Shown: positions 9,799 through 60,413, counted from the stretch's first letter. The stretch: DNA of 64,000 bases from Candidatus Doudnabacteria bacterium (GCA_963768175.1 CAVYGQ010000001.1:574305-638304); one strand, 5' to 3'. Numbers and translations: made by a program. The notes: a model not told the origin generated them from the letters alone.

Positions 9799-10971
9799 TT
9801 ATTTCCTGGCTTTCGCCATTTTTTTTAGTTCTCTGATTTTATCCGTTTTCTCCCACGGGAATTTTACGTCAGTACGGCCAAAATGCCCGTAGGACGCGGT
9901 TTGTTCGTAAATCGGACGCTCCAGATTTAATTGTTTGATAATGTCGGCCGGTTTTAGCGGAAAGATTTCTTCCACGATTTTTTCCAAACGGTCATCGCTA
10001 ATCCTGCCGGTACCGTAAGTATCCACCATGGCGGAAACCGGTTTGGCCACGCCAATGGCGTAAGCCAGCTGCACCAGACATTTTTTCGCTAAACCCGACG
10101 CCACCACATTTTTGGCAATATAGCGCGCGGCATAAGCGGCGCTGCGGTCAACTTTGGTCACGCACTTGCCGCTAAAACATCCACCCCCGTGCGGCGCATA
10201 GCCGCCGTAAGTATCCACAATAATTTTGCGCCCGGTGAGCCCCGCGTCCGCTGGCGGCCCGCCCAGCACAAACCTGCCGGTGGAATTAATAAAAATCCTG
10301 ATATTTTTGTTAAACCACTTGCCGAGCACGGGCTTTATAACATATTGGGTAATTTCGCCGCGCAATTTTTCTGTGGTTACTTCTTCGGAATGATGCGCGG
10401 CGATGACGACCGTGGTAACTCTTCTTGGTTTTCCATTAACATACTCAATGCTGACTTGCGATTTGCCGTCCGGCCGCAAATACGGCAATTTTTTATTCTT
10501 GCGTACCTCGGCCAGCTTGCGGGTTAAGCCATGGGCCAAAGAGATTGGCAGCGGCATCAGCTCCTTGGTTTCGTCGCAGGCAAAACCGAACATTAACCCC
10601 TGGTCACCCGCGCCCTGTTCCTTAAACTCACCCTTGCCTTCGTCTACTCCTTGCGCGATATCAGGCGACTGTTCATGAAGCGTGCTAATGACACCGACAT
10701 CGGAAAAACAAAAACCGTATTCCGGCTTGTCGTAACCGATTTTTTTAAGCGTCCGCCTAACCACGCTTTGGATGTCCACATAAGCCTTGGTGCGCGCCTC
10801 GCCGCCCACAACTACCAAACCAGTGGTGGCAAAACATTCTATGCCGGCGTGCGCCTTTTTGTCCTGCCTAAGCATTTCATCGTACACGGCGTCGGAAATT
10901 TGGTCGCAAACTTTATCCGGATGCCCTTCGGTTACGGACTCGGAGGTAAAAACGTAGCTCTTTTTGATCAT
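9799..10971 (-). CDS. metK: S-adenosylmethionine synthetase
   Basis: [20 protein letters not shown] and GGGAFSGKD-like motifs; 390 aa. Confidence 0.95.
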
Positions 10972-11071: not shown

Positions 11072-11335
11072 AAAAAACCGCCTATCGGCGGGTTGTAAAA
11101 TTATCTTCCCCGCTCGGGGCTAGAAGTAGCACCTTTCGTATGGGGGTCCCCAAAAATTAGGAGCGCAATTTCCGTAATGCTTTACGGAAATGAGCACGGA
11201 TTTTTGGGGAGAGGAGCAACTGCGGAGAGCTAAGTTTCCGATTTTTATCGGAACGAAAGCTCGAAGCAAGTTGCGACGAGGTTGCTGGCAGGTCATTGGG
11301 CTAGATCCCTCACTGCACTCTTGATAAATTATTTT
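11072..11335 (-). promoter_or_regulatory. SAM-I (S-box) riboswitch with a greatly enlarged P3 region and an intrinsic terminator, in the metK leader
   Basis: Minus-strand RNA contains TTATCAAGAGTGCAGTGAGGGATCTAGCCCAATGACCTGCCAGCAACC and GAAAGGTGCTACTTCTAG core motifs, a P4 hairpin CCCCGAGCGGGG, then the terminator CCGCCGATAGGCGGTTTTTT. Confidence 0.7.
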
Positions 11336-38086: not shown

Positions 38087-38566
38087 CTAATTATTTGATC
38101 CCATTAGCAATGAGAAAAGCCCTAAACCCCCTCCCGATGCGGCCGGGTAATATTTGCTGATTATCACTTCCGTAGAAGCTCCTGCTACTTGCGGCCGAGC
38201 TGTATAGACGTTTTGCGTTCCCAAGCCCAGATAGTTTGATATCTGCGAGCCAGCTCCCTGGCCAATGAAGGCCAAGTTATCCGCAGCTAAAGCATATCCC
38301 GGGGCTTCCGGCCGAATTAGCTGGGCGTAAACAAACTTGCTATAGCTATTTGAGACTTTATCTAAAACAGCCATAACCTTTGCCGGCCCTAAGGTATCCG
38401 GAATAGGGCTGTAGACCTGCGTGAAACTGGCGTTGCTTACGGTTATGGCAAACATAAACGACATTGAAACGAGCGCCACCCCAAGCAGGCTTAAAACTTT
38501 TGCCGGTGTTTCTTCAGTCATAATGATTAATTTTGAAATTCCATTCTCTAGTTTACCCAGCACCAC
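38087..38566 (-). CDS. hypothetical membrane-anchored protein
   Basis: N-terminal TM then Ser/Ala/Gly-rich domain. Confidence 0.4.
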   Translation of the reverse strand: MVLGKLENGISKLIIMTEETPAKVLSLLGVALVSMSFMFAITVSNASFTQVYSPIPDTLGPAKVMAVLDKVSNSYSKFVYAQLIRPEAPGYALAADNLAFIGQGAGSQISNYLGLGTQNVYTARPQVAGASTEVIISKYYPAASGGGLGLFSLLMGSNN

Positions 38567-38888: not shown

Positions 38889-40085
38889 CTACTTCATTTT
38901 CTTTCTAATAAACGCAGGGATGTCCAGCTCGTCTTCATTATTTTCCGAAGGCTGGGGCTGGGGATTGACGATTTCTATAGGCGGGACGGGTTTGGGATTA
39001 AACATCGGCTTGCGGAATTCCGGCGGAGACATTACCGGGGGGGTAGCGGCTTTTGGCTCCTGGATTTTCGGCTTCCTGGATTCATCGTTTAAAACCATAG
39101 CCGCTGGCGTAACCCTTTTGCTACTTTCGTCAAAGCCCGTGGCAATAACCGTAATGCGCACTTCGTCGCTCATGGATTCGTCTATAACCGCGCCGAATTT
39201 GACTTTGGCGTCAGGATCTATATTCTTGGTAATAACCTTGGCGGCTTCGTCTATTTCAAACATGCCCAAGGAACTGCCACCCGTAATGTTAAACAATACA
39301 CCTTTGGCACCGTCTATGGTCATCTCCAGCAAAGGAGAACTAATGGCCGCTCTGGCCGCTTCCTGGGCGCGGTTTTCGCCCGAGGCACGCCCAATACCCA
39401 TTAAGGCGGTACCAGCATCCATCATAATGCTTTTGACGTCGGCAAAGTCGGCATTAACAATGCCATGAGTGGTAATTAAATCGGAAATCCCGGCAATCCC
39501 TTGGCGAAGAACCTCGTCCACGGTTTTGAAAGCATCCACCAAAGAAGTTTTTTTATCTATAATCTGTAAAATCCGATCATTGTGAATGGAAATTATGGCA
39601 TCTACCTTATCTTTTAAGTTATCATAGCCGGTCTCGGCAATTTCTTTTCTCTTGCTGCCTTCAAAAGTAAAAGGCTTGGTAACCACCGCTACGGTTAGAA
39701 CAGATTTGTTCTTGGCCAGCTCCGCCACAATTGGCGCGGCTCCCGTGCCGGTGCCGCCGCCTAGACCGCAGGTAATAAAAATCATATCCGCGTTGTCTAT
39801 AACCTCTTCCAGATCTTCCACGCTCTCTTCGGCCGCCTGCCTGCCCAAATCCGGGTTCATACCGCTACCTAAGCCTTTGGTTGTGCCTTTGCCAATATGG
39901 ACTTTGCGGTCGGCCTGGTTGTTGTGCAAAGCCTGGGCATCGGTATTTATTGAAATGAATTCCACACCCTTTATGCCCAGCTGGGTCATGCGGTTAACGG
40001 CGTTAGTGCCCGAGCCGCCGATGCCCAAAACCTTAATCCTGGCGAAAGTCTCAATTTTGGGTTTGACTTCCATAAATTTTTTCAT
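38889..40085 (-). CDS. ftsZ: cell division GTPase FtsZ
   Basis: [25 protein letters not shown]-terminal DIPAFIRKK peptide. Likely start MKKFMEV. Confidence 0.95.
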
Positions 40086-40301
40086 AGTCTCTGACTTCAG
40101 AATAATAGATAAAAAAAATAAAATCAAGCGCCGGACAACTTATACTGCCTTTTGCGATTGATTTTTGTTTTAACCGCTGTTTTGGCGGTGGTTTTTGCTT
40201 CAAAATGATTATAGCATAACCACGTTATAAGACAAATAATCTATAAATAAAAAAGACCTTTTTAGGTCAAAATTCGGTTGATGGGGCGAAGAAAAAAACA
40301 A

Positions 40302-40336
40302 ATTTAAAAACCCCGTTCCGTTGAACCGGGTTTTTA
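40302..40336. terminator. hairpin AAAAACCCCGTTCCGTTGAACCGGGTTTTT
   Basis: Downstream of the 40472-41674 gene. Confidence 0.4.
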
Positions 40337-40471
40337 AATTGACGGGGAGAGCAGACATGGGCAGTCTGACTCTCCTCGTTGGAGCCCTGCAGCGGGTCGT
40401 TCTATTGGTTGTGTTCTCGGGAAAGATAGGCATTTGGTTCCTCCTAGACCAAATCATCTAGAGCCTAAGAA

Positions 40472-41674
40472 CTACTTGCGAAGACGGATGAATCGGAAAG
40501 ATCGGTTGAAGTGGCTAAAGCCAGCTCCGTGGTAGCCGACAAACCATCCCCCATAATACCAACCAAGGACATACACTTCACGTCCGCTGTCCTCGCTCAA
40601 CGCAATGGTGCGTGGCAGGAGGATAACAACTCCGCCCTTATCAATGTCTGTTCTAAGGTCTGGCGGTATAATGTTCTTACCCTCTTTTTCGGCATCAAGC
40701 ACTAATTTACCGAGGCCAAGACTCCCGATGGCTCCTACCTCTTTTGCTCGTTTAAACATTGTATCGCTGTCAATCGAGTTTTCATCTCCCCGCACCGGGC
40801 AGTATGAAAAGTCAAGATTGGCGAGATTAACACTACTTTCTAGGTCATCAGTTAAGATCTGATGCCCCTTTGCTAGGAGACCGGTGTCTTGGGCACGAAG
40901 CGGTCTGACGATGTTGCCGCCTTGTCTTTCTGTGCTGTTGACTTGTTTCCCTTGTTCCCGAGCTCTCGCCTGTTCGGCAGCCAGTCGTTCCGCCAGTTCT
41001 CTGGCCTTTTGCTCCGCTTCACTATTTCTCTGCTCCAGTTCGGCCTTCTGGCGTTCCAGGTCCTTGGTTCTTTGCTCCAGCTCCGACCTTTGCCGTTGCT
41101 GTTCCAGTTCTTTCTCTCTGGCTTTTTGTTCCTCTTGTTCCCTGATTCTTTGTTGCTCCTCATCTTTGAGCTTCTGTTGCTCCAGCTCTTTCGCCTTTTG
41201 TTCATCCATTTGTTGGATGACCTCCGGCGTGAGTGGAAGAAGCTGGGTGCCGTAGCGAGGGTGAAACTTGTAACCCAAGGGCAGCAGTTCAATCCTGTCG
41301 TCCTGGGCTTTGTAGTAGCGGTACATCGCTTGGCCGGTCATGGGGTTGAAGTAGTGGCCTTGTTTGGGCTGAGCGAGGAAGTACATAATCACCAGCCAGC
41401 TGGAAACGGCCGAGGCGATGATTATTACCTTCTTGGTGGTCCGCCTAAAAAACAGCGCGGACAGGAAGGTGGGGATGAGCAGCATGGTGACCACGGTCAG
41501 CCAGAGGCTGATTGCCCCGTTTAAGGTGTCGGGCAGACCAGCCATGTTTTGGAGGTTTCCGAAGAACCAGGAGTAGATACCCCAGGCCATCAGCAGGTCC
41601 AGCAGCCGGAAAGTCAGGAAAGCACCGGCTGCCAAGGTACCGTAAAACAACCCGCGCTTGACTATGCGGTTCAT
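40472..41674 (-). CDS. multi-TM membrane protein with E/Q/K/R-rich coiled coil and unique C-terminal domain (paralog A)
   Basis: 400 aa. N-terminal ~190 aa is homologous to the 46880-48283 product (YRYYKAQDDRIELLPLGYKFHPRYG vs YRYYKADNGRIELFPLAQKYHRRYG). ELEQQ-type heptads follow. Confidence 0.5.
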   Translation of the reverse strand: MNRIVKRGLFYGTLAAGAFLTFRLLDLLMAWGIYSWFFGNLQNMAGLPDTLNGAISLWLTVVTMLLIPTFLSALFFRRTTKKVIIIASAVSSWLVIMYFLAQPKQGHYFNPMTGQAMYRYYKAQDDRIELLPLGYKFHPRYGTQLLPLTPEVIQQMDEQKAKELEQQKLKDEEQQRIREQEEQKAREKELEQQRQRSELEQRTKDLERQKAELEQRNSEAEQKARELAERLAAEQARAREQGKQVNSTERQGGNIVRPLRAQDTGLLAKGHQILTDDLESSVNLANLDFSYCPVRGDENSIDSDTMFKRAKEVGAIGSLGLGKLVLDAEKEGKNIIPPDLRTDIDKGGVVILLPRTIALSEDSGREVYVLGWYYGGWFVGYHGAGFSHFNRSFRFIRLRK

Positions 41675-41808
41675 TGAGCGTTCCTCTTTCTGTTTGTGGA
41701 ATGTGCTACATCAAGCTTTCGCTTGACTTAATATCATATTCCAACAAAAAAGAGCTGCCAATGACCTCAAAACAAAAAAACGCTTTTTTTATACCTATTT
41801 ATTAAATT

Positions 41809-42150
41809 TCAAACCTTATTATTTTTTCGGCTCATAACTGTCTTTAAAAACTCATGCTCCTTTAAAAATGCGTCTTCCAATGCTTCCGCAAAACCGGGAA
41901 TCTCCGCCGTAATCCGGGTAATCTTCTCTTCCGCAGTTTTTGGATCTTTTAATGCTTCCTGAATTTGTAATTTTTGTTCCGGCGTTGCCATCATTATCAT
42001 GGTATCCAAAACCACATTTTGGTAACGTTCCGAAAGCATGACAAGAGCTTTTTGTTTTTCTTGTTCCGGCAAGTTGTCCAAATTCAAATCCGCCAAAAGC
42101 TCTTTGACTTCGCCTTGCGCATCGGGTTTCCTATTTTTTTGCGTGTCCAT
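41809..42150 (-). CDS. hypothetical protein
   Basis: 113-aa ORF 18 nt downstream of the 970-aa gene. Confidence 0.4.
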   Translation of the reverse strand: MDTQKNRKPDAQGEVKELLADLNLDNLPEQEKQKALVMLSERYQNVVLDTMIMMATPEQKLQIQEALKDPKTAEEKITRITAEIPGFAEALEDAFLKEHEFLKTVMSRKNNKV

Positions 42151-42167
42151 AAGTTAAGTTAGTTATT

Positions 42168-45080
42168 TTATTTTGCTCTCGCTTCCGTCCTTAATTCCGC
42201 GCTGGCAATGTTGCTGGCTTTTTCAAAATATTTTGGCTTTATCCGCTTTAAGCCTTCCATAACTGTTTTCAGATGTTCCGCGTCCTGCTCTTTTTGCCCG
42301 CCCTCTTTTTTTGCCTGCCTGACAGCCGTAATAAAAATTTTATAAATTTGAACTAGCGGGCCAAGAGCTGCGGCTGGATCTTTGTCAATTTCGGGTTTTG
42401 TTTTTTTATAATCTTGTCGTGACAATAATTCCAAAATCTCGTCAATTTGCGAATCGGACAGCAAATTTTTGGCTCTTATTTCCTGCCAAACCTGGCTAGT
42501 CGGATTTAGATATTTCGCCCAGGCTTCTTTGTTGACGCCCAAAGCTCCGGCCTCGGTTTCCAAGGGGTTTTGCTCTTTTGCCGGAGTTTCCAGTTTAACC
42601 TCGGTCTGGATTTTGAGAAACAAGCCCGGTGCTAATTGTCCAAGCTCGTCCAACAAACTACCTGCCTTATCTTTTTCCCTACTAGACAAAACAGTTTTAT
42701 ATAACTCTTTCAATATTTCTATGCTGCCAGATGCGTTATACTTCTCAAAACCTATAATTAAACTGCGTCTGAACTTTTCCGCATCTCTTTCGCCAAAAAG
42801 CGCATTAACCGGACCGCCTGATTTTTCCATTATCAAAAACCATTTATTCAACCTCTGGGTCGGCTTGTTGCCGTTCTCTTCAACTTTTTCGGGTGTAACA
42901 ATTTTTAGCCTGAAAGCCAATGCGCACAAATCCCTCTGCCAACCTTCCAGATTGGGAATTTTGTTGGCCGCTTCCCTTGTCCGCGCTTCATCGGACAAAA
43001 CGACGACTGGTTCTGGCTTAGAAATATTTATCCCAAGATTTATTTCCCCTATATTTAAAGATATAGGAGCTTTAGACTTTTGACGATGCGACCAAATTTT
43101 GCCGTACAATTTTGCCGTTTCCTCTACCGGCGTATTAATGACTTTGGCAATGGGTTTGGCTGCTTTCTCGGCAGTACGCCTAATACGTTCAACCACACCT
43201 CCGCCACCGCCTCCACCGCCTCCACCGCCCCCGCCCGATCCTCCCCCGCCGGCGGTCATTAAAGTTTCTACGGATGAATTTCTTTTTTTATGCAAAACAT
43301 AAGCCGCGCCAAGCGATGAAAGTGCAAGAATTGCCGCCCCAGTCGCTATTACTTTACGCTCTTGCTCATCGGCAGCCAACTGCTCCGCAGTCGGCTTAAC
43401 GGCTTCATGGGCCGCAACGGCAGCGGCATTAGCGCCGGTTTCCGCCGCGTGCTGCGCTCCGGTCTGGGCCGCGGCTTTTATTACCTGCCCTGTTGCCTCA
43501 TGGGCAACGGCAGCAGCCTGTTTTAAGGTTTCCTCTAAAACCGGTACATGCACGCCGTTGGCTTCGGCAATTTTATACAATGCCTCGGCATGATGAAGTT
43601 CAAAGCCCGACTGCATATGGATATCCGGAATGTTTCCATGGATATGATGAAATCCCGGAAAATCGGCCAAACCGTGATGCGCCGTAATTTCAACACTGTT
43701 AAGCGCGGACAGCTGTTTTGTACCTTCATTTATTAATTGGTTACTGGGATGCTGGACGCCATGAGCCACATACCATTCTTTGACCGAATCCCAAACTGTC
43801 TTTTTCATCTGGATTTTCAAATCCACCGCCGCTTGCTGCACAGATTCGTGCGCGGATTTGACGGCTTCGCCAATCGCTCCATGGTTGGCGGCAACAACTT
43901 CCGCATGCCTGCTTATGATTTCTTGAGCCGCTCCGGCGGCATGATGCGCGCCAGTGGCCAAATCCACAATAGCGCCAGCTATCGCTCCGCCAACCGCTCC
44001 GGCCAAAGCCCCATACAAAGCGGCTTTGGCAATCTTGCTTTTATCCTTAGTTAAACCGTATCGCTTTAAGATTTTTTCCAGTTCCAAAAAGGTTTCCTGG
44101 TTTGTCCGTGTTTCCGTACCCGAAAAAGTAGCGCCATGAGCAGGCGCAGCTGTATGGCCATGAGCCTCATGCGTCTGAGCGACAGACACTGGTGCGGTCG
44201 CGTGAGTTGCCGTTTCCGTAGACTGCGAAGGAGGCTGCAACCAAAAACTATCGCGCAAAGCCAAAACTTTTTGTAAACGATTTGCGCCTTCCAAATTCAG
44301 CCATTCTTTCTTTTTTACCAAAACCGCCAAATCCTGCAACTGCCGGTATAAATCAACTTCCTCATTAACCTTGGTTTCCAAACCGTGCTGGTGCAAAGCC
44401 TCGGTGATTGCGATATACCGTTCCACCTGCGCCAACGGCGTTAAATTACTGGCATCTGCCAAAAGCTGCTTATAGGTATCCAAAGATGTAAAACGTTTCT
44501 TTTGTCTATGGCTTTCTCTGGCATATTCCCAAGTTCCTCCAACCGCGGCACCGGCCAAAGCGCCCGCACCAATAGTACCAAAATCAAGAAGTCTTTTTGC
44601 CCCCTCACGCACCACATATCCGGCTACGATTTTGGCCGCCACTCCTCCCGCCGCCAAACCGGCGCCGGATCCCCATTTGGCCGACTGCCAAAACCTGACT
44701 TTTTTCCCAAAAACTTTTTCTTCTTTCACCCGTCTGGTTATTTCTCCCGCATTTTGCCTCACCACCCTTTGCTGCTCGGGTGGTAATTGCTGCGTAGCGG
44801 TATCAACCGCCTGCTCAACCGGATCCCCGGCTTGGGCTTCGGTTTGTCTTTCGGGACCTGCTTCATGATTCTGTCCGGCCTGCCCCTGTTCTTGTGCGCG
44901 CACTCCCCCAGCTGCTACCGCGGGTGCGGCGGATTCAGGAGTTGCCGCAGCGGGCGCTTGGCCGTTTTCCGACGGTAAAGAATCCAAATCTCTGCGCAAT
45001 GCGGCGTTGGCATCAGGAGCTGTTTCGGTAAGCCCGTTATGATGTCTTTCTGCCATAAAATCAAATAAAATATTTCGCAT
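42168..45080 (-). CDS. 970-aa hypothetical protein with glycine-zipper segments, His-rich region and a 17-residue poly-Gly linker
   Basis: Glycine-zipper ALYGALAGAVGGAIAGAIVDLATGA; His-rich HHGLADFPGFHHIHGNIPDIH; linker TAGGGGSGGGGGGGGGGGGGVV. No recognisable catalytic domain. Confidence 0.5.
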   Translation of the reverse strand: MRNILFDFMAERHHNGLTETAPDANAALRRDLDSLPSENGQAPAAATPESAAPAVAAGGVRAQEQGQAGQNHEAGPERQTEAQAGDPVEQAVDTATQQLPPEQQRVVRQNAGEITRRVKEEKVFGKKVRFWQSAKWGSGAGLAAGGVAAKIVAGYVVREGAKRLLDFGTIGAGALAGAAVGGTWEYARESHRQKKRFTSLDTYKQLLADASNLTPLAQVERYIAITEALHQHGLETKVNEEVDLYRQLQDLAVLVKKKEWLNLEGANRLQKVLALRDSFWLQPPSQSTETATHATAPVSVAQTHEAHGHTAAPAHGATFSGTETRTNQETFLELEKILKRYGLTKDKSKIAKAALYGALAGAVGGAIAGAIVDLATGAHHAAGAAQEIISRHAEVVAANHGAIGEAVKSAHESVQQAAVDLKIQMKKTVWDSVKEWYVAHGVQHPSNQLINEGTKQLSALNSVEITAHHGLADFPGFHHIHGNIPDIHMQSGFELHHAEALYKIAEANGVHVPVLEETLKQAAAVAHEATGQVIKAAAQTGAQHAAETGANAAAVAAHEAVKPTAEQLAADEQERKVIATGAAILALSSLGAAYVLHKKRNSSVETLMTAGGGGSGGGGGGGGGGGGGVVERIRRTAEKAAKPIAKVINTPVEETAKLYGKIWSHRQKSKAPISLNIGEINLGINISKPEPVVVLSDEARTREAANKIPNLEGWQRDLCALAFRLKIVTPEKVEENGNKPTQRLNKWFLIMEKSGGPVNALFGERDAEKFRRSLIIGFEKYNASGSIEILKELYKTVLSSREKDKAGSLLDELGQLAPGLFLKIQTEVKLETPAKEQNPLETEAGALGVNKEAWAKYLNPTSQVWQEIRAKNLLSDSQIDEILELLSRQDYKKTKPEIDKDPAAALGPLVQIYKIFITAVRQAKKEGGQKEQDAEHLKTVMEGLKRIKPKYFEKASNIASAELRTEARAK

Positions 45081-45112
45081 ATATTATAGTATTTTTCCCT
45101 TAAAAATGCAAA

Positions 45113-45140
45113 AAACCGAAAGATAAACTTTCGGCTTTGC
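45113..45140 (-). terminator. intrinsic terminator downstream of the 45375-46424 gene
   Basis: CCGAAAGTTTATCTTTCGG hairpin followed by a U-run on the minus strand. Confidence 0.45.
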
Positions 45141-45374
45141 GAACCTTTGCGCCCAATTGCGCAAAAGCTTTACTTCATTTGATGCGTTTGATGTGTTAGC
45201 TTCGCGTGCCGCCATACTCCGCAGCAGTGGGTTTCATTCGGCCCCTTTCGGGACTTCCACATCATCCGTTACAACTGGTTACAACAACCTCTTCCCGCGC
45301 AGCATATGCTATCTTGCTACGCTTGGACAAGGGCACTGCCACCCGGTCAATACCTTCGGCCGGGAGTTACTGCT

Positions 45375-46424
45375 CTAGCTAGTCACCACCGGCGGCTCCC
45401 CTTCGGGATGCTCGATGGCGGCAGCCGGCTCAGCGGCCACTTCCGCAGGCAGCTCGCCCTCTTGGGGCGGCTGTTCAACCGCGGGAGCCGGTTCGGGAGC
45501 CGGTTCCTCGGCCACAGGGGCCGGAGGTTCGGGAGTTCCGCCACCATTCCGCTTCCGTGCCTTCAAAAGCACACGGGCCAATGCCTGATTGGCCGAAATG
45601 TTTTCCGGCGTGTCCGGCAGTTCGGTGGTGGGTTTCGGTTCGGCCGCGGCTGGCGCAGCATTGGCTTCTTCAACGTGAGCTTCTTCAGCCGCGGGAGCGG
45701 CAGCGGGGACTTCAACGTGCTCTACAGCCAAATCGGTCAGGTCGGGCGCGGGAGCCGGGTCTTCATGGTGTTCTTCTGCAGCGGAAACCTCTTCAGCCGG
45801 AGGGACGGGCGGCACTTCTAGGCCAAGACTTCCATCATCTGGGAGCTGCCTACGGCGCCAGCCGATGAAATAACCGATAGGGCCGACAAGTAGGAACAGG
45901 AGCGCCCAGAGCGGGAAGTGATTCTTGTCCTGCTCTTTCTTCAGGTCGTCCTGCGCCGTCTTGAGAGCGGCTTCGGCTCTGTCCGCGCGAGCGCTGGCAG
46001 CAATGAGGGCCTTGTTGAGCTCATCAATCCTGCCTTGCTGGTCAATACACGGCGGGCCATTGGTCGTGGCTGACCGGGAGATAGCCCCCGGGGTGCAGCC
46101 TTTGGACGGGCCAAACTTCGCCTGCTCCGCCGCGATGAACGCGACGTAGGCGGCGCGGTCAGGCCGCGCGTCAGACGGCAGATAGAGCGTCTTGTCCGTC
46201 ATAGTCCGCACCTCATCGGGGCGGATGACGGAACCGTTCTTGTGCTGCAGCTGCGGCACAAGGAAATGCGAGTGCCCGGCGGCTTTGAGAGCCGCACCGG
46301 GTCCGCAGTTGGCCGTCGGAACCGTGAGCAGGTCCGTGGCCATTACAGGTGCCACCGCAAGCATCGTCGCAAAAAAAACCGCGAACGGCTGCCCGAAGCG
46401 CCTTAACATCATCTGAAGAATCAT
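45375..46424 (-). CDS. secreted protein with central TM helix and Ala/Pro/Glu-rich disordered C-terminal tail
   Basis: Ribosome-binding site AGGAGGAG before MILQMMLRRFGQPFAVFFATMLAVAPVMA signal peptide. TM helix FPLWALLFLLVGPIGYFIGW. C-terminal (A/P/E)n. Confidence 0.5.
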   Translation of the reverse strand: MILQMMLRRFGQPFAVFFATMLAVAPVMATDLLTVPTANCGPGAALKAAGHSHFLVPQLQHKNGSVIRPDEVRTMTDKTLYLPSDARPDRAAYVAFIAAEQAKFGPSKGCTPGAISRSATTNGPPCIDQQGRIDELNKALIAASARADRAEAALKTAQDDLKKEQDKNHFPLWALLFLLVGPIGYFIGWRRRQLPDDGSLGLEVPPVPPAEEVSAAEEHHEDPAPAPDLTDLAVEHVEVPAAAPAAEEAHVEEANAAPAAAEPKPTTELPDTPENISANQALARVLLKARKRNGGGTPEPPAPVAEEPAPEPAPAVEQPPQEGELPAEVAAEPAAAIEHPEGEPPVVTS

Positions 46425-46560
46425 CTCACTCCTCCTAGAGCGTGCATGAGTGGCGAGACCCCCACCCAAGCTCTGGAATGTACTGCCAGTCTCGTTAACG
46501 GCTACTATTATTTATATAACAGCCACAAACGAGGCCAAAAGTTGCGTTTGATTTTTGGAT

Positions 46561-46598
46561 ATATATTATAACAAAAAATCCGTCTCTTGTCAATAGCC
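46561..46598 (-). promoter_or_regulatory. consensus sigma70-type promoter (TTGACA-17-TATAAT) for the 45375-46424 gene
   Basis: Minus strand reads TTGACAagagacggattttttgtTATAAT. Confidence 0.5.
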
Positions 46599-46636
46599 AT
46601 ATCCTCTATAAAAATGAGGCTTGACTGTACGGTTTA

Positions 46637-46800
46637 TTAAATGTTCCTCTTTCTCTATTTTCAATCAAGGTTGTCCAGCCGAAGCCGGATCTGTCCACTT
46701 TCCTTTTGGGAAACTGGGCATATTGAGCTTCGTTGTAAAGATTTAAAATGGTGATGAGGGAAGAAGGAACAGCAGGTCTTTCTTCCCCCACGGTTGAACG
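46637..46800. repeat. copy 1 of a ~160-bp repeat (AAGGTTGTCCAGCCGAAGCCGGATCTGTCCACTTTCCTTTTGGGAAA...CCCCCACGGTTGA)
   Basis: About 90% identical to 48284-48440. Confidence 0.7.
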
Positions 46801-46879
46801 GTTTGTAAACAGGCGATCAGATCGTTAGCTTTTCCGGCCATACCAGACAGGCTAATAGAGTTTGTCATAGTCTTGGAGT

Positions 46880-48283
46880 TCATGACCACGTCCCCCTAAG
46901 GCTGATGCGCACTGGCTCAAACTGGCAATGGTGGAAGGTCAGGCCAGTTAGTCCCGGGCTAAGCGGACCGAAAGTGTATTGGACAGTGTAACGGTTCTTA
47001 AGTTTCCGGCAGGGAAATCGTTTACCATTTTTTACAACGACTTCGTCGTAGTATCCGCTGTCGGCAACTACCGGGTAATACTTACCGTCACTGCCAAACA
47101 ATTTGGTCCGTTTGTTGGGGTCGCCGGTTGTCGAGAAGAGATAGTTACCATCGGTACGATATCCGTTCCCAAATTGATGCGAAATGAACCAGGCTGTTAC
47201 AATCGTCTGGGACTTACTGGCTTCCACACTCTCTACCTGCATCAGGATGTCGTCGTCTTGAGAGCTTACTTGGTCGCTGGCTTGGCCGTAAGTGATGGAA
47301 ACCAACTGGTCAGACAGATGGTAATCTTTGGGTCTCATCAAGTAGGAAGGTGTCGCCTGAGGCTTTTTTACAAATGGCCAGCCTCGAGGCCAAATATCAT
47401 GCATAAGCCCGTAAAGGTAAATCGCGCCTAGACCACAGAAAACTACAGCGCCAAGACACATCAGAGTGACAACCTTTGCTCCACTACTTATTTCATCAGC
47501 CTTGCGTTCTAGGTCCCTAGTCTTCTGCTGCAGCTCTGACCGTAGCTGTTCTGATTCTTTGGCTTTCTGGTCAGCCAGCTCCTTGGCTTTCTGTTCCAGC
47601 TCGGCTTTTTGTTGTTCCAGGTCCTTGTTTTTCTGCTCCAGCTCAGACCTCTGCCGTTGCCGTTCCAGCTCTTGTTCTCTGGCTTTCTGTTCCATTAGTT
47701 CCCTGGCTTTTTGTTCTTCCTTGTCCTTGGCCTCTTGCTTGTCCAGCTCCTTGGAGATCACCGTGGTAAGCAGGGGAAGCTCCACGCCATAGCGCCGGTG
47801 ATACTTCTGGGCCAAGGGGAATAGCTCAATCCTACCGTTGTCAGCCTTGTAGTAACGGTACATAGGCTGGCCAAGACGGGAAAAGTGCTCCCCTTCCCTG
47901 GGTTGGGACAAAAAGTACATCCCAACCATAACAACCGAGAGTGAGGCGCAAAGAACCAGCGCCTTCTTAAAGGTGTACCGGAAGAAGATCAGCGAAATTG
48001 CCACGGGCAGGAGCAGGACAGCGGCCACGGTCAGCCAAATGCTGATCGCACCGGTAAGCAGGTCGCCCAACCCGGCAATTTCCTGAACCTTCTGGAAGAT
48101 TGTGCTGAACATCCAGCCGACCATGATCAGGCGGCTGAGCCAGAACACGATGGGGACGCAAAGGATGCCGATAACAACAGCACCCCAAAAACCCACACGG
48201 CCAAGACGCCTTACGAGCCTGACGGCACCGTAAAAAGCGCCTAACAAAACCACGACAAGGACAATCCATGCGTAGTTGTTCAT
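46880..48283 (-). CDS. multi-TM membrane protein with E/Q/K-rich coiled coil, fifth TM and unique C-terminal domain (paralog B)
   Basis: 467 aa. N-terminal region and coiled coil homologous to paralog A; divergent C-terminus. Confidence 0.5.
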   Translation of the reverse strand: MNNYAWIVLVVVLLGAFYGAVRLVRRLGRVGFWGAVVIGILCVPIVFWLSRLIMVGWMFSTIFQKVQEIAGLGDLLTGAISIWLTVAAVLLLPVAISLIFFRYTFKKALVLCASLSVVMVGMYFLSQPREGEHFSRLGQPMYRYYKADNGRIELFPLAQKYHRRYGVELPLLTTVISKELDKQEAKDKEEQKARELMEQKAREQELERQRQRSELEQKNKDLEQQKAELEQKAKELADQKAKESEQLRSELQQKTRDLERKADEISSGAKVVTLMCLGAVVFCGLGAIYLYGLMHDIWPRGWPFVKKPQATPSYLMRPKDYHLSDQLVSITYGQASDQVSSQDDDILMQVESVEASKSQTIVTAWFISHQFGNGYRTDGNYLFSTTGDPNKRTKLFGSDGKYYPVVADSGYYDEVVVKNGKRFPCRKLKNRYTVQYTFGPLSPGLTGLTFHHCQFEPVRISLRGTWS

Positions 48284-48440
48284 TTAAGGTTCCTCTTTCC
48301 ACTTTTCAAGGTTGTCCAGCCGAAGCCGGATCTGTCCACTTTCCTTTTGGGAAAATGTTCATATTGAGCTTCGTTGTAAAAATTAAATGGTGGTGAGGGA
48401 AGAGAGGCTAAGAAACAACCCCCTTCCCCCACGGTTGAGC
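48284..48440. repeat. copy 2 of the ~160-bp repeat, forming the 5' leader of paralog B
   Basis: Begins at the start codon and ribosome-binding site of the 46880-48283 gene. Confidence 0.7.
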
Positions 48441-48507
48441 CTCCATGCGGAGGGCTGTGGTTGGTGACCGGGCGCGATAGAGTTTCATCGCATCGGCCGG
48501 AAGACAG

Positions 48508-48693
48508 TCAGCGCACCTTGGCCGTGACCAACTTTCGCTGGACGGCGAAGACCAGCACCAGGCCGATGAGGTTGAGGACGACGCCGATGAAAAACCACCC
48601 CACCGGGTCCCGTCCTTTGGTTTTCGCAACCCAGGCGGCGACTACGCCGAACAGGATGCAGGTAACCACGTACAATGCGTAAGTACTTGGCAT
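48508..48693 (-). CDS. 61-aa two-TM small membrane protein
   Basis: MPSTYALYVVTCILFGVVAAWVAKTKGRDPVGWFFIGVVLNLIGLVLVFAVQRK. Confidence 0.35.
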   Translation of the reverse strand: MPSTYALYVVTCILFGVVAAWVAKTKGRDPVGWFFIGVVLNLIGLVLVFAVQRKLVTAKVR

Positions 48694-49035
48694 TGAGTTT
48701 ATCCTCTTTCTCTTTCTGAACGTACCGGCTTTAAGGCCGGCTCTGCCCGTATTCCGATGGAATCCGAACATAGTAAGCCCTAAATGTCAAAAATATGGCA
48801 ACCTTTAGTGGACTAATTATAGTATGCCAGAAAATAGCTCTTGTCAATAACGATTATTGGACAATTATCAATCCTAAAATCAAAAAAAACCGAACTATTT
48901 TCAAATAAAAAAGAATGGTCAAAAGAAAAACAGCAGGACGGTGAAGGTAAATACACTTCACGCACCTGCTGTTTAAAAGACTCCCCCCATCGGTGTTCCA
49001 ATTTTGTACGAAACATGAAGGTGAAAAACCCCTAC

Positions 49036-49875
49036 CTACTTGAACAAGCCACGGAGCCAGCTCGGCAGGCTGTCCACCCACCGTGACAATGGGCTGAAAC
49101 CTACCAGTCCCAAGTAGTTGTCTACTTGGTCGTGCGGCAGATTCAGCAAGAAGTCCAACTGCCGGACGTCGCCTTGCAGTTTGTCCTGCACCGCTTGCCA
49201 GAACTGCGGGGCTTTGACTGGGCCAAGATGCTTGAGGTAGGCCTGGACTTTCGGGTTCAGCTCCGGGTCTTGAGCGACCTGCGAAATCAGCAAGGGATCA
49301 GGCTCTGGCCGCTTGGCTTTGTCCGTATTTGCCGGAACGATGTTAGCGAGAAGGTCTAATTCTCGAGAATCGCCTTTCACCATTTCTTCCAGCATGCCGT
49401 CACCGATGCTGGCAACGACCTGGTGGAAGGAGCTCCTCTGTTCTAGGGTCAGAGCAGTGTACCATGCCAGAAATTGTTGACGTTTCTGCGCGTCCTGGAC
49501 GTTTTGTAGCACTGCCTGGACTCGCTGGATTTGCTGCAGGTCTTGGGCCAGAATCTGGGTATTGCGTTGTTTCCTCGTGGATTCCGACTTCTGTTCCTCA
49601 CGGAGGACAACCAGGACTTCCTGTATTACTAAATCCTGGAATTGTTGGAAGGCTGAGTGCCCTCTGAATTTGAGAGTAAACCTGGAAAGCACTTGTCTGG
49701 CGAATTCCAAGTCTTCCTCGTGGTCCAGCAACAGTTGCCTGATGTCTGACGGCAATTGTCTGGTTAGCGCCAAGGCCAAGGGTCTCTTAAACCGGTTGGA
49801 AGCCCAGTCGCTGAAATTTCCGGGTGGCTCTACCCTTTCCCGTACTCCATTCTTTTCATGGGGTGGAGTATGCAT
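49036..49875 (-). CDS. hypothetical Gln/Leu-rich alpha-helical protein
   Basis: 279-aa ORF, no recognised domain. Confidence 0.4.
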   Translation of the reverse strand: MHTPPHEKNGVRERVEPPGNFSDWASNRFKRPLALALTRQLPSDIRQLLLDHEEDLEFARQVLSRFTLKFRGHSAFQQFQDLVIQEVLVVLREEQKSESTRKQRNTQILAQDLQQIQRVQAVLQNVQDAQKRQQFLAWYTALTLEQRSSFHQVVASIGDGMLEEMVKGDSRELDLLANIVPANTDKAKRPEPDPLLISQVAQDPELNPKVQAYLKHLGPVKAPQFWQAVQDKLQGDVRQLDFLLNLPHDQVDNYLGLVGFSPLSRWVDSLPSWLRGLFK

Positions 49876-49975
49876 AACCCCTCCTTTCTAATCTAGGCTA
49901 ACTTTACACCATATCAAAAAACCCGCTTCTAGTCAAGAGAAACGGATTCTTATATTTGTCTTATTTAAAACTTTT

Positions 49976-51223
49976 TTACGGCAAAAACGATTTAAACCAC
50001 TTTCTTACCTTAGCCACGCTTTGGTTGCTTAAGATTCTTTTAATCGCGTCTCCCAAGCTCGCGCCGGAAGGGGAAGCATATTTGTTGCCCCATAAAACCA
50101 ATCCCGCGGCCGTGGCAAAACAGGGATCGTTGACCCGGTCAATAATTGTCGTGACATTTTCCGGCCGGCCCAAAACAGAAGGCAGGCGCAGATGCTTTTT
50201 GGAAAACTCCACCACGCCCGGCAAATTGGCGCCGCCGCCGGTTAAGACAATGCCAGCCGGCAGTTTGCCGTCGCGCTGGATTTTTTTTAGCTCGCTGTTA
50301 ACATAAGCAAAAATTTCCTCCAGCCGCGCTTCAATAATTTCCACCACATATCCGCGTATTGTTGCCTGGTCCTCGTTTTTGTCCAGGCGGGACAAATCTA
50401 TTTCCTCGTTTTTATCCACGGCTTTAAGGTCGCAGTGGCCAAATTGCAGTTTAACTTTTTCCGCGGTTTCAATACTGCACCGCAGGCCAATGGCAATATC
50501 GTTGGTAATGTGGCTGCAGCCCAAGGGCAAAACCGCGGTGTGCAGCAAATCCCCTTCCTCATAAACCGCCATTCCGGTGGTGCCGGCGCCCAAATCCACT
50601 ACGCAGACGCCCAAATCTTTTTGGCGTTTTTTTAACACGCTCTCGGCCGCGGCGCAAGGAGCCAAGACTAAATCTTCTATTTCCAAACCGGCCTGCATAA
50701 TGGCTTTGGTCAGATTTTTTACAAACGGCACGCCGGCTTGGACGATAATCGTGTCCACTTCCAAGCGGATACCGCTCATGCCTAAAGGATCTTTAATGCC
50801 GGTTTGGCCGTCTAAGGTAAAGCTTTTGGGGAAAACATGCAGGACTTCCTTATTGCTGGGAATGGAGATGGCCTGGCTGGCGTCTATGCAGCGGATAATG
50901 TCGTTCTCGGAAATTTCCCCGTCGGCGCGGGAAACGGCAATTACGCCGTGGGACTGCAGCGAGGAAATATGGTTGCCGCCCACCGAAACATTGGCCGAAA
51001 CCACTGGCACTCCGGTCATGCGCTCAACTTTTTCCAGGCCCGAGGATATTGCCGAGACCGCTTCTTCTATGTCCACAATTACGCCGCGGCGCATGCCAAA
51101 ACTGGGCGCTTCGCCGGCGCCGATAATGCTAAAACTGCCAGTTTCCCTATCCAGCTTGGCCTGCACCACGCGCACACTGGCCGTACCTACGTCCACTCCA
51201 ACGATATATCGTTCCTTCGCCAT
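49976..51223 (-). CDS. ftsA: cell division protein FtsA
   Basis: Actin-fold motifs VGVDVGT, VVDLGAGTT, LTGGGANLPG. Confidence 0.9.
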   Translation of the reverse strand: MAKERYIVGVDVGTASVRVVQAKLDRETGSFSIIGAGEAPSFGMRRGVIVDIEEAVSAISSGLEKVERMTGVPVVSANVSVGGNHISSLQSHGVIAVSRADGEISENDIIRCIDASQAISIPSNKEVLHVFPKSFTLDGQTGIKDPLGMSGIRLEVDTIIVQAGVPFVKNLTKAIMQAGLEIEDLVLAPCAAAESVLKKRQKDLGVCVVDLGAGTTGMAVYEEGDLLHTAVLPLGCSHITNDIAIGLRCSIETAEKVKLQFGHCDLKAVDKNEEIDLSRLDKNEDQATIRGYVVEIIEARLEEIFAYVNSELKKIQRDGKLPAGIVLTGGGANLPGVVEFSKKHLRLPSVLGRPENVTTIIDRVNDPCFATAAGLVLWGNKYASPSGASLGDAIKRILSNQSVAKVRKWFKSFLP

Positions 51224-53091: not shown

Positions 53092-54394
53092 CTATCTTCC
53101 CAGCCTCTTCTTGACCTCTGATACTATTTTATCATAAGATATGATTTCCTGCATCCCGCTCTTTACATCCCGCAATATCACCATTTCTTCCATGGCCTCC
53201 TTCTGCCCCATAATTAAGGCTATGGGAGCATGAAAACTTTCCGCCTGCTTTAACTGGTTCTTGACTTCCGACGTTGCCGAAGTGGTCGTAAACGGAAATT
53301 TTTTCCGCTGTTAAATCACGGAAGAGGCGCAAAGCCTTTTTCGCGGCCAACTCGCCGAGCGGGACCAAAAAAACATCATTACTCTGTTTTTGGCTGACAA
53401 CGGTCCTGGAGTTTTCCAAAAGTTCATGGATTTTGGACAAACTGCCCACAAAACCAAAACAGCAGTAATTTTTGCCGCACAAATTTTGCATCAAGCTATC
53501 GTGATAGCCTCCCTCGCCCAAAATTATGGTCTCGCCTTTGAGCTTGGATTTAATAACCAAATTGGTTTTGCCCGATCCATCAGGACCGACGTAAAGCGGG
53601 TTCAACTGGTAAGGCACGCCCAGTTCGTCTAAAGCCTCCAAAATATTGGTAAAATGTTTGCGCGATTCCTCATCCAAAAAATCCAAAACTGTTGGCGCTT
53701 CCGAAAATAAGGCCTGACAATCTAAATTGCCGCAGCGGAACACATTTAACACCCTGCCCTGCAAATGCTCGTTGCAATTATCGCAAAGCTGATACTTTTT
53801 AGCCACCAAATAATCCTGCAAAGTTTGGCTGTAAGCCAACTGGCAGTCCTCCTTGCCAAGAGAATTAATTTCCAACACGCTGTCTTTTAAGCCTAAGCCT
53901 AGCAAAAATTCCCAAACCGAACCGATAACCTGGGCTTCAGTTAAGTGGTTAAACTGGCCAAAAACCTCGAAATTGAACTGGTAATCGGAAACTAAATTTT
54001 CGTTTTCATCGCGCTTGACCGTAAATCCCGAAGCAGCCCATTTGCTTAACGGGGATTTTTCATAAACCTTGCGCTGATAATAAGCCCGAAGCAGCCCAGG
54101 CAAAAAGTCGCCGCGGATAACGGCCTGATCCTGTTTTCTGATTTGTACCGAAAGGAAATTCTTAAGGAGTTTGGGGTTGGTCTTATAAAAATTTTCATAG
54201 AGCCGGAGGTCTTCTAATAAAGGCGTTTCCACTTTTTCAAAGCCATAAATTCTGGAAAGCTTGGTAAAACGCCTTAAAATCGCGTCCCACAAAATGTCGG
54301 TTTCGCCGACTATGTCTTCCAGAAAATCCAAACTTTGGACTTTTTTGGGAGAATACCCGGCCGCCGTACTCTGATTTTTTTTTGGTCTGCCCAT
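53092..54394 (-). CDS. hisS: histidyl-tRNA synthetase-like class II aaRS with an apparent frameshift at an A-run near 53292
   Basis: Motifs IRGDFLPGLLRAYY, ILGEGGYHDSLMQNL, FGFVGSLSKIHELL. The HisRS-like anticodon-binding C-terminus (FHAPIALIMGQKEAMEEMVILRDVKSGMQEIISYD) continues in another frame down to ~53092. Confidence 0.55.
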
Positions 54395-55539: not shown

Positions 55540-55616
55540 TGGTGGACAATACTGGACTCGAACCAGTGACCTCTGCAATGTGAATGCAGCGCTCTAACCA
55601 GCTGAGCTAATTGTCC
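55540..55616 (-). tRNA. tRNA-Val (anticodon CAC)
   Basis: GGACAAT...ATTGTCC acceptor, D-arm GCTCAGCTGGTTAGAGC, anticodon stem CTGCA/TGCAG with loop TTCACAT, T-loop GGTTCGAGTCC, CCA encoded. Confidence 0.75.
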
Positions 55617-59417: not shown

Positions 59418-60413
59418 TTAAGGTTTCTTTTCAGGATACTTTTTATAGAATTCATTTTCAATCATTTGTACTCTTGAACTAAGACTGTCTTTAATAGCTA
59501 TGCTTGGAATTATATTATTTAACAATTGGCTTGCAGCATCATCGGTAAGATAGTTTTTCCAATATAATAAACCAAGACGGTATTTCTGATTTTGATTCCG
59601 ATAAGAATAAACCAACAATGTTACATTGGGGTTATTAGCTCCCATCCCGATAAAATTTAACTTATCAAGTTCGGTTGTATCGGTTTTTTGTAATGTTTCA
59701 GTACCTTGTATAACAGTATCCCATATTGCCTTGCTTGAATCGCCTGTTTGGACACTATATACATAATCGTTCCAATCATCAAAAGAAGCTTGTGAATTAT
59801 ATACTGACAAGGAAAGAATAACCGGTGCCTGTTTATATCCTCCCGCATCATTAAACATAGCCCTCTGGAGATAAAAAGAATACACAAATTTGTCTTTTAT
59901 GGGTTCCACTCCATAAAAATTAGCAATAGATTTTTCCGAGTCCCAGACAAAAGACTTGGGAACTTTAATATCTGCCAAGCCATCAAGATTATAAGAATTA
60001 AAAATTTTATCATCTTGAGCAACTAACTCGCTACTCCGTAAATCTTTCCATAACCCAAATAAAGCAAAAACTATACACAAGCACAATAATAGCAGTAAAG
60101 GTGAAATTCCCCATCCTACATTCCGTTTTATCCAAATAAAAACAATTGCTAAAATAGCAACTATCGGATAACTAAATAAAGGGTATATAAATCCTTTTTG
60201 TAAATTATTGGTTCCTGCCAAGCCGCCGAACAAAGGTGTTAAAACAGCAAAATACATCCACATTATCAATGTTATAATTATAGCGATTGTAAACCAAATA
60301 GGCATTTTAATTGAGGTCATTTTATTAATTATTTTAATTTTACTTATATTATAGCACTTTTTTGTGATTTTTAAATATCTGCTATAATTCCCACTATGAA
60401 GAAAAGCCCTCAT
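59418..60413 (-). CDS. AT-rich hypothetical membrane protein
   Basis: 4 TM helices then Asn/Ser/Tyr-rich domain. Noticeably lower GC than neighbours. True start probably the internal MTSIK. Confidence 0.4.
   Translation of the reverse strand: MRAFLHSGNYSRYLKITKKCYNISKIKIINKMTSIKMPIWFTIAIIITLIMWMYFAVLTPLFGGLAGTNNLQKGFIYPLFSYPIVAILAIVFIWIKRNVGWGISPLLLLLCLCIVFALFGLWKDLRSSELVAQDDKIFNSYNLDGLADIKVPKSFVWDSEKSIANFYGVEPIKDKFVYSFYLQRAMFNDAGGYKQAPVILSLSVYNSQASFDDWNDYVYSVQTGDSSKAIWDTVIQGTETLQKTDTTELDKLNFIGMGANNPNVTLLVYSYRNQNQKYRLGLLYWKNYLTDDAASQLLNNIIPSIAIKDSLSSRVQMIENEFYKKYPEKKP

Follow-up and report, generated by a model that had tools for sequence, protein, structure and literature searches.

The division genes ftsA and ftsZ, whose adjacency makes them one of the most conserved gene pairs of bacteria, lie 9.8 kb apart in a stretch of 64,000 nucleotides from a Candidatus Doudnabacteria bacterium (GCA_963768175.1, CAVYGQ010000001.1:574305-638304; the whole stretch is called the window below). 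The intervening DNA is probably a lineage-specific flexible island of the replacement type, which occupies a permissive site and codes for envelope or surface proteins. The upstream core flank, ftsA (49976-51223), was recognized by TIGR01174 (1.3e-111, above the cut-off) and by the Pfam models FtsA and SHS2_FTSA, the downstream one, ftsZ (38889-40085), by TIGR00065 (2.2e-121, above the cut-off). Both are on the minus strand, as are all genes between 34 and 55 kb (hisS, HIT, rpsU, yqeY, ftsA, seven open reading frames, ftsZ, p159, nrdR and RNR, in this order) and all features of the island described here; the direct adjacency of the pair in the division and cell wall (dcw) cluster is not found. 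A preliminary description of this DNA had reported the split of ftsA and ftsZ by a same-strand insert of ~9.8 kb, and the model matches and the positions of the open reading frames (ORFs) verified it. The number of inserted genes, given there as six, has to be corrected to seven, which is also how many that description had enumerated. From ftsA to ftsZ these co-oriented ORFs are p279, p87, p467, p364, p970, p113 and p400.

Logan assemblies of run ERR10755942 match p467 and its flanks at 100% identity, and the segment p970-p113 was likewise recovered. Because these independent contigs reproduce the arrangement, the region is genuine and not an assembly chimera. The Logan contigs break exactly at the internal repeats of the island.

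The spacing of the two genes was compared in loci around homologs of FtsA (39, from genomes) and of FtsZ (70, from metagenomes); individual loci are referred to by L numbers. The FtsA sequences of L001 (CAZQFQ010000012) and L002 (PLYC01000026, labelled Doudnabacteria), both metagenome-assembled genomes, are 90-91% identical to that of the window at the amino acid level, and the FtsZ of the window is 93% identical to those of L043 and L044. In about 45 loci of more distant relatives, taken from genomes and metagenomes and holding both genes, the gap is 6-210 bp, which bears out the earlier impression that the spacing in the window is unusual. A neighbour-joining tree of FtsA groups the window with L001-L007, L016 and L054 in one clade; there the gap is 2.5 kb in L004, 3.3 kb in L054 and more than 10 kb in L001, L002, L003, L005 and L016. 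L007, with abutting genes and a gap of 186 bp, is the only island-free member of the clade among the loci that are long enough; the L006 locus is too short to call the gap. An adjacent ftsA is likewise missing from those metagenome loci whose FtsZ is most similar. It follows from the distribution over the FtsA clade that the island is old and clade-specific, not a private insertion of the genome studied here. A literature search found no report of a split ftsA-ftsZ pair in Patescibacteria. Wider gaps were also seen in unrelated Patescibacteria, 7.1 kb in L035 (Spechtbacterales) and 0.8-1.0 kb in L092, L095 and L099, thus the ftsA-ftsZ junction may be permissive more widely.

What lies between the same two core genes differs even between close relatives. 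All-against-all clustering of the ORFs from 27 loci resolved three recurrent modules. Module A, consisting of p364, p970, p113 and the families F28, F29 and F36, is present in L001, L045 and L050; the window has its first three genes, followed by p400 at the place where F28-F29-F36 are found in the other three loci. Module B pairs a small DUF5663 protein (PF18908 match of 9e-7 to 2e-8) with an unrelated giant protein of 490-1985 amino acids (family F5). Both genes occur in L002, L003, L016 and L104, the giant protein in L044, L051, L070, L075 and L081, and in L069 a 918-amino acid protein and DUF5663 stand directly ahead of ftsZ. A third gene set, module C, was seen in L005/L046. Thus L002, whose FtsA is 91% identical to that of the window, carries module B, and L001, with 90% identity, carries module A. 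The genes p279, p87, p467 and p400 are specific to the genome of the window, and the shared trio p364-p970-p113 is only ~25-40% identical to its counterparts in L001, L045 and L050. A common origin of the giant families p970 and F5 was considered and dropped; their similarity is confined to a 24-column Gly-zipper segment.

Several of the sister islands have further contents. MNT/HEPN toxin-antitoxin pairs were found in the islands of L001, L049, L081 and L088, in the last three next to ftsZ. In L001 (11318-12405) an MNT/HEPN-like pair comes right after ftsA, and behind it the last ~115 bp of ftsA recur at 74% identity, together with the ftsA terminator-promoter element. This duplicated 3' end looks like a recombination footprint, and insertions of MNT/HEPN pairs and of ftsA ends are typical of a recombination hotspot. 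The L005/L046 island codes for a 580-amino acid divergent protein of the FtsZ/tubulin superfamily (L046:1681-3423 (+), the same as L005:14487-16229), with a phmmer match of 1e-5 to B. subtilis FtsZ structures, a Pfam Tubulin match of E = 0.003 and a signature-like GQGGTGLGAGP motif. At the ftsZ-proximal island edge of L046 (8519-9652 (-)) and L045 (112-1347 (-)) there is, on the opposite strand, a gene for a secreted protein of 377-411 amino acids (family F46), whose L046 copy has a C-terminal T4SS_pilin domain (PF18895, 2.9e-8).

Terminators and promoters were predicted from the sequence, and these signals place the insertion between the terminator of ftsA and the promoter of ftsZ. The predicted ftsA terminator (49905-49950), a hairpin of -14.8 kcal/mol (z = -3.95) followed by U6, is merged with the putative promoter of the first island gene: a TTGACT -35 box lies within the loop of the hairpin and a TATGGT -10 box follows the U-tract. 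The arrangement with TTGAC(A/T) in the loop is common to the window, L001, L002 and L004, which have different stem sequences. RNAalifold did not find a consensus for this terminator because of indels, but the individual folds did recover it. At the other end of the island the predicted terminator of p400 (inverted repeat I2, 40340-40301, -19 kcal/mol) is followed by the predicted ftsZ promoter (40235-40208), which consists of TTGTCT, 16 nt and the extended -10 box TGcTATAAT; the TGCTATAAT element also precedes ftsZ in the island-free L007 and L026. Hairpin and U-tract terminators were predicted not only after ftsA and p400 but also after p87, p467 and p364. A consensus promoter for p364 is located at 46593-46565, and the intrinsic terminator of this gene (45112-45138, about -15.7 kcal/mol, z = -2.9) is followed by a promoter-like site for p970 (45112-45083). 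Nothing in the predicted signals suggests a single ftsA-island-ftsZ transcript. The preliminary description had proposed envelope or division proteins co-transcribed with ftsAZ; the envelope part of this proposal agrees with the transmembrane (TM) helices, the signal peptide and the domain types described below, whereas the terminators and the separate ftsZ promoter speak against co-transcription.

The terminator of p87 (a hairpin of -26.8 kcal/mol, z = -4.5) and the 5' region of p467 together form the first copy (48284-48440) of a leader cassette of ~150 nt, made up of a terminator and a 5' leader. The second copy (46619-46800) shares with it an 82-nt core that is 94% identical, and runs into a decayed paralog start, in which ATG has become ATA and ~6 codons are left. 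These residual codons resemble the start of p400, and the decayed start is the relic of a third paralog of p467 and p400. The relic abuts the conserved promoter region of p364 (46595-46449, 78% DNA identity to L001) and marks the boundary between genome-specific and clade-conserved DNA. An independent contig, L114, ends inside both leader-repeat copies. We also considered the duplicated leader as the template/variable pair of a diversity-generating retroelement, and rejected this idea since its mismatches are not restricted to adenines and no reverse transcriptase is encoded in the vicinity.

The genes p467 (46880-48283) and p400 (40472-41674) had been described as a paralogous pair, and this holds: their products are 50% identical over the N-terminal 236 amino acids and have unrelated C-termini. 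Both have a three-TM anchor, one 55-amino acid repeat, a coiled coil (~90 amino acids in p467) and a C-domain, which is beta-rich in p467; p467 has in addition an extra TM helix at its N-terminus and another, unusual one at residues 271-289, between the coiled coil and the C-domain. An exhaustive search with a profile of the N-module yielded 420 cluster representatives with E <= 1e-3; 146 of these had E <= 1e-10. The architecture of the family is three TM helices, one to six tandem beta-rich repeats of ~55 amino acids (consensus FNP.TG....Y....DG.I.LFPLGY..HP..G..L.P.T), a charged coiled coil and a C-terminal domain. Neither Pfam nor NCBIfam has a model that covers the anchor and the repeats, and the PDB gave no analogue of them; the AlphaFold2 model of the p400 N-module, made with 40 sequences, had a predicted local distance difference test score (pLDDT) of 87.4. 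Among 60 members of the family the N-module matched in 1740 of the 1770 pairs and the last 120 amino acids in 31 of them.

The C-domain of p467 belongs to a type that recurs in the family and of which 14 members were aligned; neither this domain nor its 14-member profile had a significant sequence match in the PDB. A resemblance to Ig (immunoglobulin)-like domains of the DUF4352 type was considered, for which Pfam gave no confirmation, only weak DUF5643 and Ig hints. The C-domain of p400 recurs only in two other proteins, P0009, which is 54% identical to p400 over the full length, and P0004, a protein of 217 amino acids without the anchor. A Cys/His catalytic dyad was considered for this domain and discarded, neither residue being conserved in P0004 or P0009. 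P0010 and p467 have the same sequence, and P0009 is probably a further paralog in the genome of p467. Recognisable C-termini were found in few members of the family (YARHG, NPCBM, SLT, LprI, SH3_3, Ig-like and HEAT), and these types are mostly extracytoplasmic or have to do with glycans or the cell wall. The repeat, the stalk and the head would lie outside the cell, as the positive-inside rule predicts from the positive charges at the N-terminus and in the TM2-TM3 loop. A hydrophobic segment follows the module in only 7 of 122 members. Within the related loci the family matches only the contigs of the window's own genes and the loci of P0002. P0002 is encoded among housekeeping genes far from ftsAZ, with a peptidase M16 gene following it, therefore the family is not tied to division.

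The trio is the part of the island that the window shares with its relatives. Its first gene, p364 (45375-46469, with the probable start at ~46424), codes for a secreted single-pass protein with a signal peptide, a Cys-containing N-domain, a short coiled coil, a TM helix at residues 185-203 and an Ala/Pro/Glu-rich tail; homologs were found in L001, L045, L050 and L005/L046, and PDB sequence searches gave nothing significant. The clade-conserved p970 (42168-45080) codes for a giant membrane protein, which starts with a disordered N-terminus and continues with two Gly-zipper segments, a His-rich block (conserved pattern TVWD...HGV.HPS..INE...GHH..DF.GFHH.H), a TM segment, a poly-Gly tract and a helical C-terminal half. 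Aligned with its counterparts in L001, L045 and L050 it is 24-26% identical, with jackhmmer E-values of 1e-188 to 1e-243. It has no Pfam match, its family profile found no significant sequence match in the PDB, and a word-indexed homology search with the full-length protein, which was probably swamped by low-complexity words, returned no match.

The third gene, p113 (41809-42150), codes for a small helical protein, which is ~40% identical to its ortholog in L001, where FtsA is 90% identical. Against the Pfam model PF18908 (DUF5663) it gave nothing at E <= 1 and did not reach the gathering score. Jackhmmer searches from p113 nevertheless reached the PF18908-positive proteins of L002, L003, L016 and L104 at 1e-23 to 1e-31 and that of L069 at 4e-5; the probability given by hhalign was only 56% (E = 1e-4). 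DUF5663 is a family of small Patescibacteria proteins; our literature search found no mention of it. The protein p113 resembles the family in size, in helical character and in position beside a giant protein, and the two are joined in iterative search, but they differ in that p113 has no direct Pfam match. On this transitive homology and the matching genomic position we classify p113 as a divergent, DUF5663-like protein.

Of the remaining genome-specific genes, p279 (49036-49875) codes for a soluble, Q/L-rich protein without TM helix or signal peptide; it matched no family and no PDB entry, and had no homolog in 114 related loci and no viral relative. The small protein encoded by p87 (48508-48771) has two TM helices (hydrophobic residues 31-49 and 59-77); it had no homolog in the related loci, and its sole match was a weak one to the phage small membrane-protein PHROG 8436 (4e-6). 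None of the seven island ORFs scored above threshold against Pfam, NCBIfam, PHROG or PADLOC, so that no defence system was found among them by PADLOC, and Rfam gave no match within the island. The profile searches proposed in the preliminary description thus agreed with its view of the genes as orphans, except that iterative search ties p113 to DUF5663. Sub-threshold matches of island proteins to ZorA, JetC, TolA and tape-measure proteins were dismissed as coiled-coil and low-complexity noise. The signal peptide or TM segments of p364, p87 and p970, and the extracytoplasmic domains in a few members of the p467/p400 family, make the island products look like envelope or cell-surface proteins.

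Parts of the insert had been noted as richer in GC than the flanks. This is true of the p364 region (0.62-0.63 versus 0.48-0.53 in ftsZ/ftsA) but not of p970 (0.49) or p113 (0.41). The GC content at third codon positions (GC3) is 0.43-0.73 in the island genes versus 0.49-0.60 in the neighbouring core genes. The synonymous codon usage of the island is inside the spread of the other genes of the window; the distances of p467 and p400 are rather large considering their length, and that of p970 is typical. Apart from p87, with its 86 codons, the strongest codon-usage outlier in the window, by far exceeding the larger island genes, is a gene at 59418-60413 (-), which codes for a membrane protein of 331 amino acids, has a GC content of 0.32 and a GC3 of 0.27, and may be foreign.

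The comparison of the loci places the origin of the island in an ancestor shared by one Doudnabacteria-like subclade, in which DNA became inserted downstream of the ftsA terminator and ahead of the ftsZ promoter. The site tolerates cargo because each division gene kept its own predicted transcription signals. Exchange, duplication and deletion of the cargo, the pattern of which is seen in the modules and in the relic, followed; they probably came about through homologous recombination, for which the highly conserved sequences of ftsA and ftsZ on either side, and repeats inside the island such as the two copies of the leader cassette, would serve as anchors. The trio is the clade-conserved yet very fast-evolving part, and p279, p87, the two paralogs and the relic are genome-specific additions. 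The exposed parts of the envelope or surface proteins would diversify, with contact with host or partner cells, the cell wall and phages as likely drivers.

It is instructive to compare the island with known systems. The O-antigen and glycosylation islands of marine bacteria are replacement-type flexible islands that encode surface structures. A cell-wall-associated replacement-type flexible island has been described in Haloquadratum walsbyi (PMC4535781). The island between ftsA and ftsZ shares with such islands the fixed site between core genes, the non-homologous cassettes in close relatives, the predicted envelope products and the absence of dedicated mobility genes. It differs from them in its position at the ftsA-ftsZ junction, in its cargo, which consists of orphan membrane and coiled-coil proteins instead of glycosyltransferases or S-layer genes, and in that the variation is seen here between species-level genomes and not within a population. 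Flexible islands with variable surface proteins are thus known; the ftsA-ftsZ location, the persistence throughout a clade and the protein families are new. In architecture only, the p467/p400 family resembles TolA and the streptococcal M protein, which also have an anchor, a long charged helical stalk and a terminal interaction domain, and the heads of the family vary like the hypervariable tip of M protein. The anchor of the family, a unique three-TM module with 55-amino acid beta repeats, is different from both. A few members have sub-threshold matches to TolA (TIGR02794) in the charged helix, but p467 scores 9.6 bits and p400 11.4 bits with this model versus the cut-off of 59.45, and relative to the LPXTG-anchored M protein the predicted orientation of the family is opposite.

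Several observations weigh against interpreting the block as a surface-protein island at a permissive site. For none of the island proteins is a function known from experiments or a fold established with confidence, and the AlphaFold2 model of the p400 C-domain, made with two sequences, was unusable (pLDDT 36.6). The surface exposure is predicted from hydrophobicity, from the positive-inside rule and from domains that co-occur in a handful of cases, and if the family topology holds, the extra TM helix of p467 at 271-289 would place its C-domain in the cytoplasm. The island has been held at one locus despite FtsA identities down to ~73%, a DUF5663-like gene often lies directly upstream of ftsZ (L059, L061, L067 and L069), and one sister island (L005/L046) encodes the divergent FtsZ-like protein; these three features could indicate a functional tie to division and not just a permissive site. 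The block would in that case be a lineage-specific division or cell-pole apparatus, whose giant protein, DUF5663 partner and p364 act with FtsA and FtsZ and are kept in place for co-regulation. We regard this as unlikely, even though the three features just mentioned, the single origin of the island and the fact that the pair of giant and DUF5663 proteins, of type A or B, is its commonest content would all suit it. L007, inside the clade, and all outgroups lack the island and divide without it, the contents are non-homologous between close relatives, their extreme divergence is atypical of divisome parts, and predicted terminators part every unit from ftsA and ftsZ. Moreover, nothing above threshold was found to ZapA, SepF, EzrA, DivIVA, FtsQ, FtsL, FtsB or MapZ, the match to MapZ (E = 0.48) being coiled-coil noise. 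A related and more speculative idea, to which we give a similarly small chance, is that the trio, with the FtsZ-like protein in one sister genome, builds an envelope organelle of a kind not known before, sited where the cell divides or at its new pole, for example an attachment or contact structure, for which the three-TM family would supply interchangeable recognition tips.

The preliminary description had compared the paralog pair with polymorphic effectors. The likeness is real as far as it concerns a conserved N-module with variable C-termini, which proved to be general in the family, extending over 420 representatives, and is shared with polymorphic toxins such as CdiA, Rhs, LXG and MafB, as are the several paralogs per genome and the decayed copy. 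If p467, p400 and possibly p970 were toxins or effectors, the N-terminal anchor would deliver interchangeable toxic C-domains to competitor or host cells; the reuse of the p400 C-domain without anchor in P0004 and the SLT lytic transglycosylase domain of one family member would be in keeping with this. We nevertheless find it quite improbable. No recognised toxin domain is present in p467, p400 or the 122 members, where the known domains are of binding, cell-wall and inhibitor types, and the candidate Cys and His of p400 are, as mentioned, not conserved. There is no small immunity-like gene downstream (p400 is followed by a terminator and ftsZ, p467 by the relic and p364, P0002 by peptidase M16). 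Nor is there a junction motif that is conserved, or a neighbouring secretion system within the window. The other earlier suggestion, a horizontally acquired cassette, fares well in one respect, since cassettes do turn over and contents are non-homologous at 90-91% FtsA identity. A recently integrated mobile element, be it a prophage remnant, an integrative and conjugative element or a transposon-borne cassette, is in our judgement very improbable all the same. The interruption of a highly conserved gene pair, the GC-rich p364 part, the toxin-antitoxin pairs and duplicated ftsA 3' end of the L001 island and the T4SS-pilin-domain gene in the L045 and L046 islands would fit such an element, but the island is old and confined to one clade, and the trio with its promoter is common to diverged relatives (L001, L045 and L050) at the same locus. 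Searches of the island ORFs with Pfam, NCBIfam and PHROGs gave no integrase, transposase, recombinase or phage structural match, there are no direct (att) repeats at the borders, the closest tRNA lies at 55540, 2.9 million viral contigs contain no relatives of p970, p279 or the N-module, and there is no clear compositional anomaly, the codon usage being within the range of the genome.

A whole lineage of Patescibacteria has long tolerated a cassette-swapping island inside ftsA-ftsZ, which works because each division gene has its own predicted terminator and promoter. The cargo defines families that have no Pfam or NCBIfam model, namely the p970 family and the 420-representative family with three TM helices, repeats, coiled coil and variable head, and the orphan DUF5663 gains a recurring genomic partner, a giant membrane protein. 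Ultra-small Patescibacteria are thought to live attached to other cells, probably as episymbionts. In such organisms fast-evolving proteins that are predicted to be exposed would be the prime candidates for recognizing hosts or escaping phages, and the ftsA-ftsZ locus offers an easily found site for studying this diversity, which can be bracketed by PCR.

Some observations concern the neighbourhood of the island. Directly downstream of ftsZ the window has p159 (38087-38566, -), which codes for a membrane-anchored orphan and is kept in almost every relative, also in some that lack the island (L007, L026 and L085-L087). As a candidate partner of ftsZ throughout the lineage it is more plausible than the genes of the island. 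Directly 3' of ftsZ, L050 (9880-10236), L047 (4112-4477) and L069 (4682-5011) have a gene for a four-helix-bundle protein of the 23S-rRNA-intervening-sequence/bAvd-like type, which is missing from the window; the L050 protein matches PF05635 (4e-37) and PF22296 (9e-11). bAvd proteins accompany diversity-generating retroelements, but no reverse transcriptase was seen. On the other side of ftsA, hisS (53132-54394, -) seems to be frameshifted at about codon 376, near 53270: the annotated frame has an unconserved tail, and the alternative frame carries the conserved C-terminus of HisRS (VKNQLKQAESFHAP...KKRLGR*), similarly to L001 and L002. The frameshift is either a sequencing error or genuine. 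Far from the island, an S-adenosylmethionine (SAM) riboswitch (RF00162, 51.4 bits) at 11098-11330 (-) lies upstream of the SAM synthetase gene (9799-10971), which is an ordinary arrangement.

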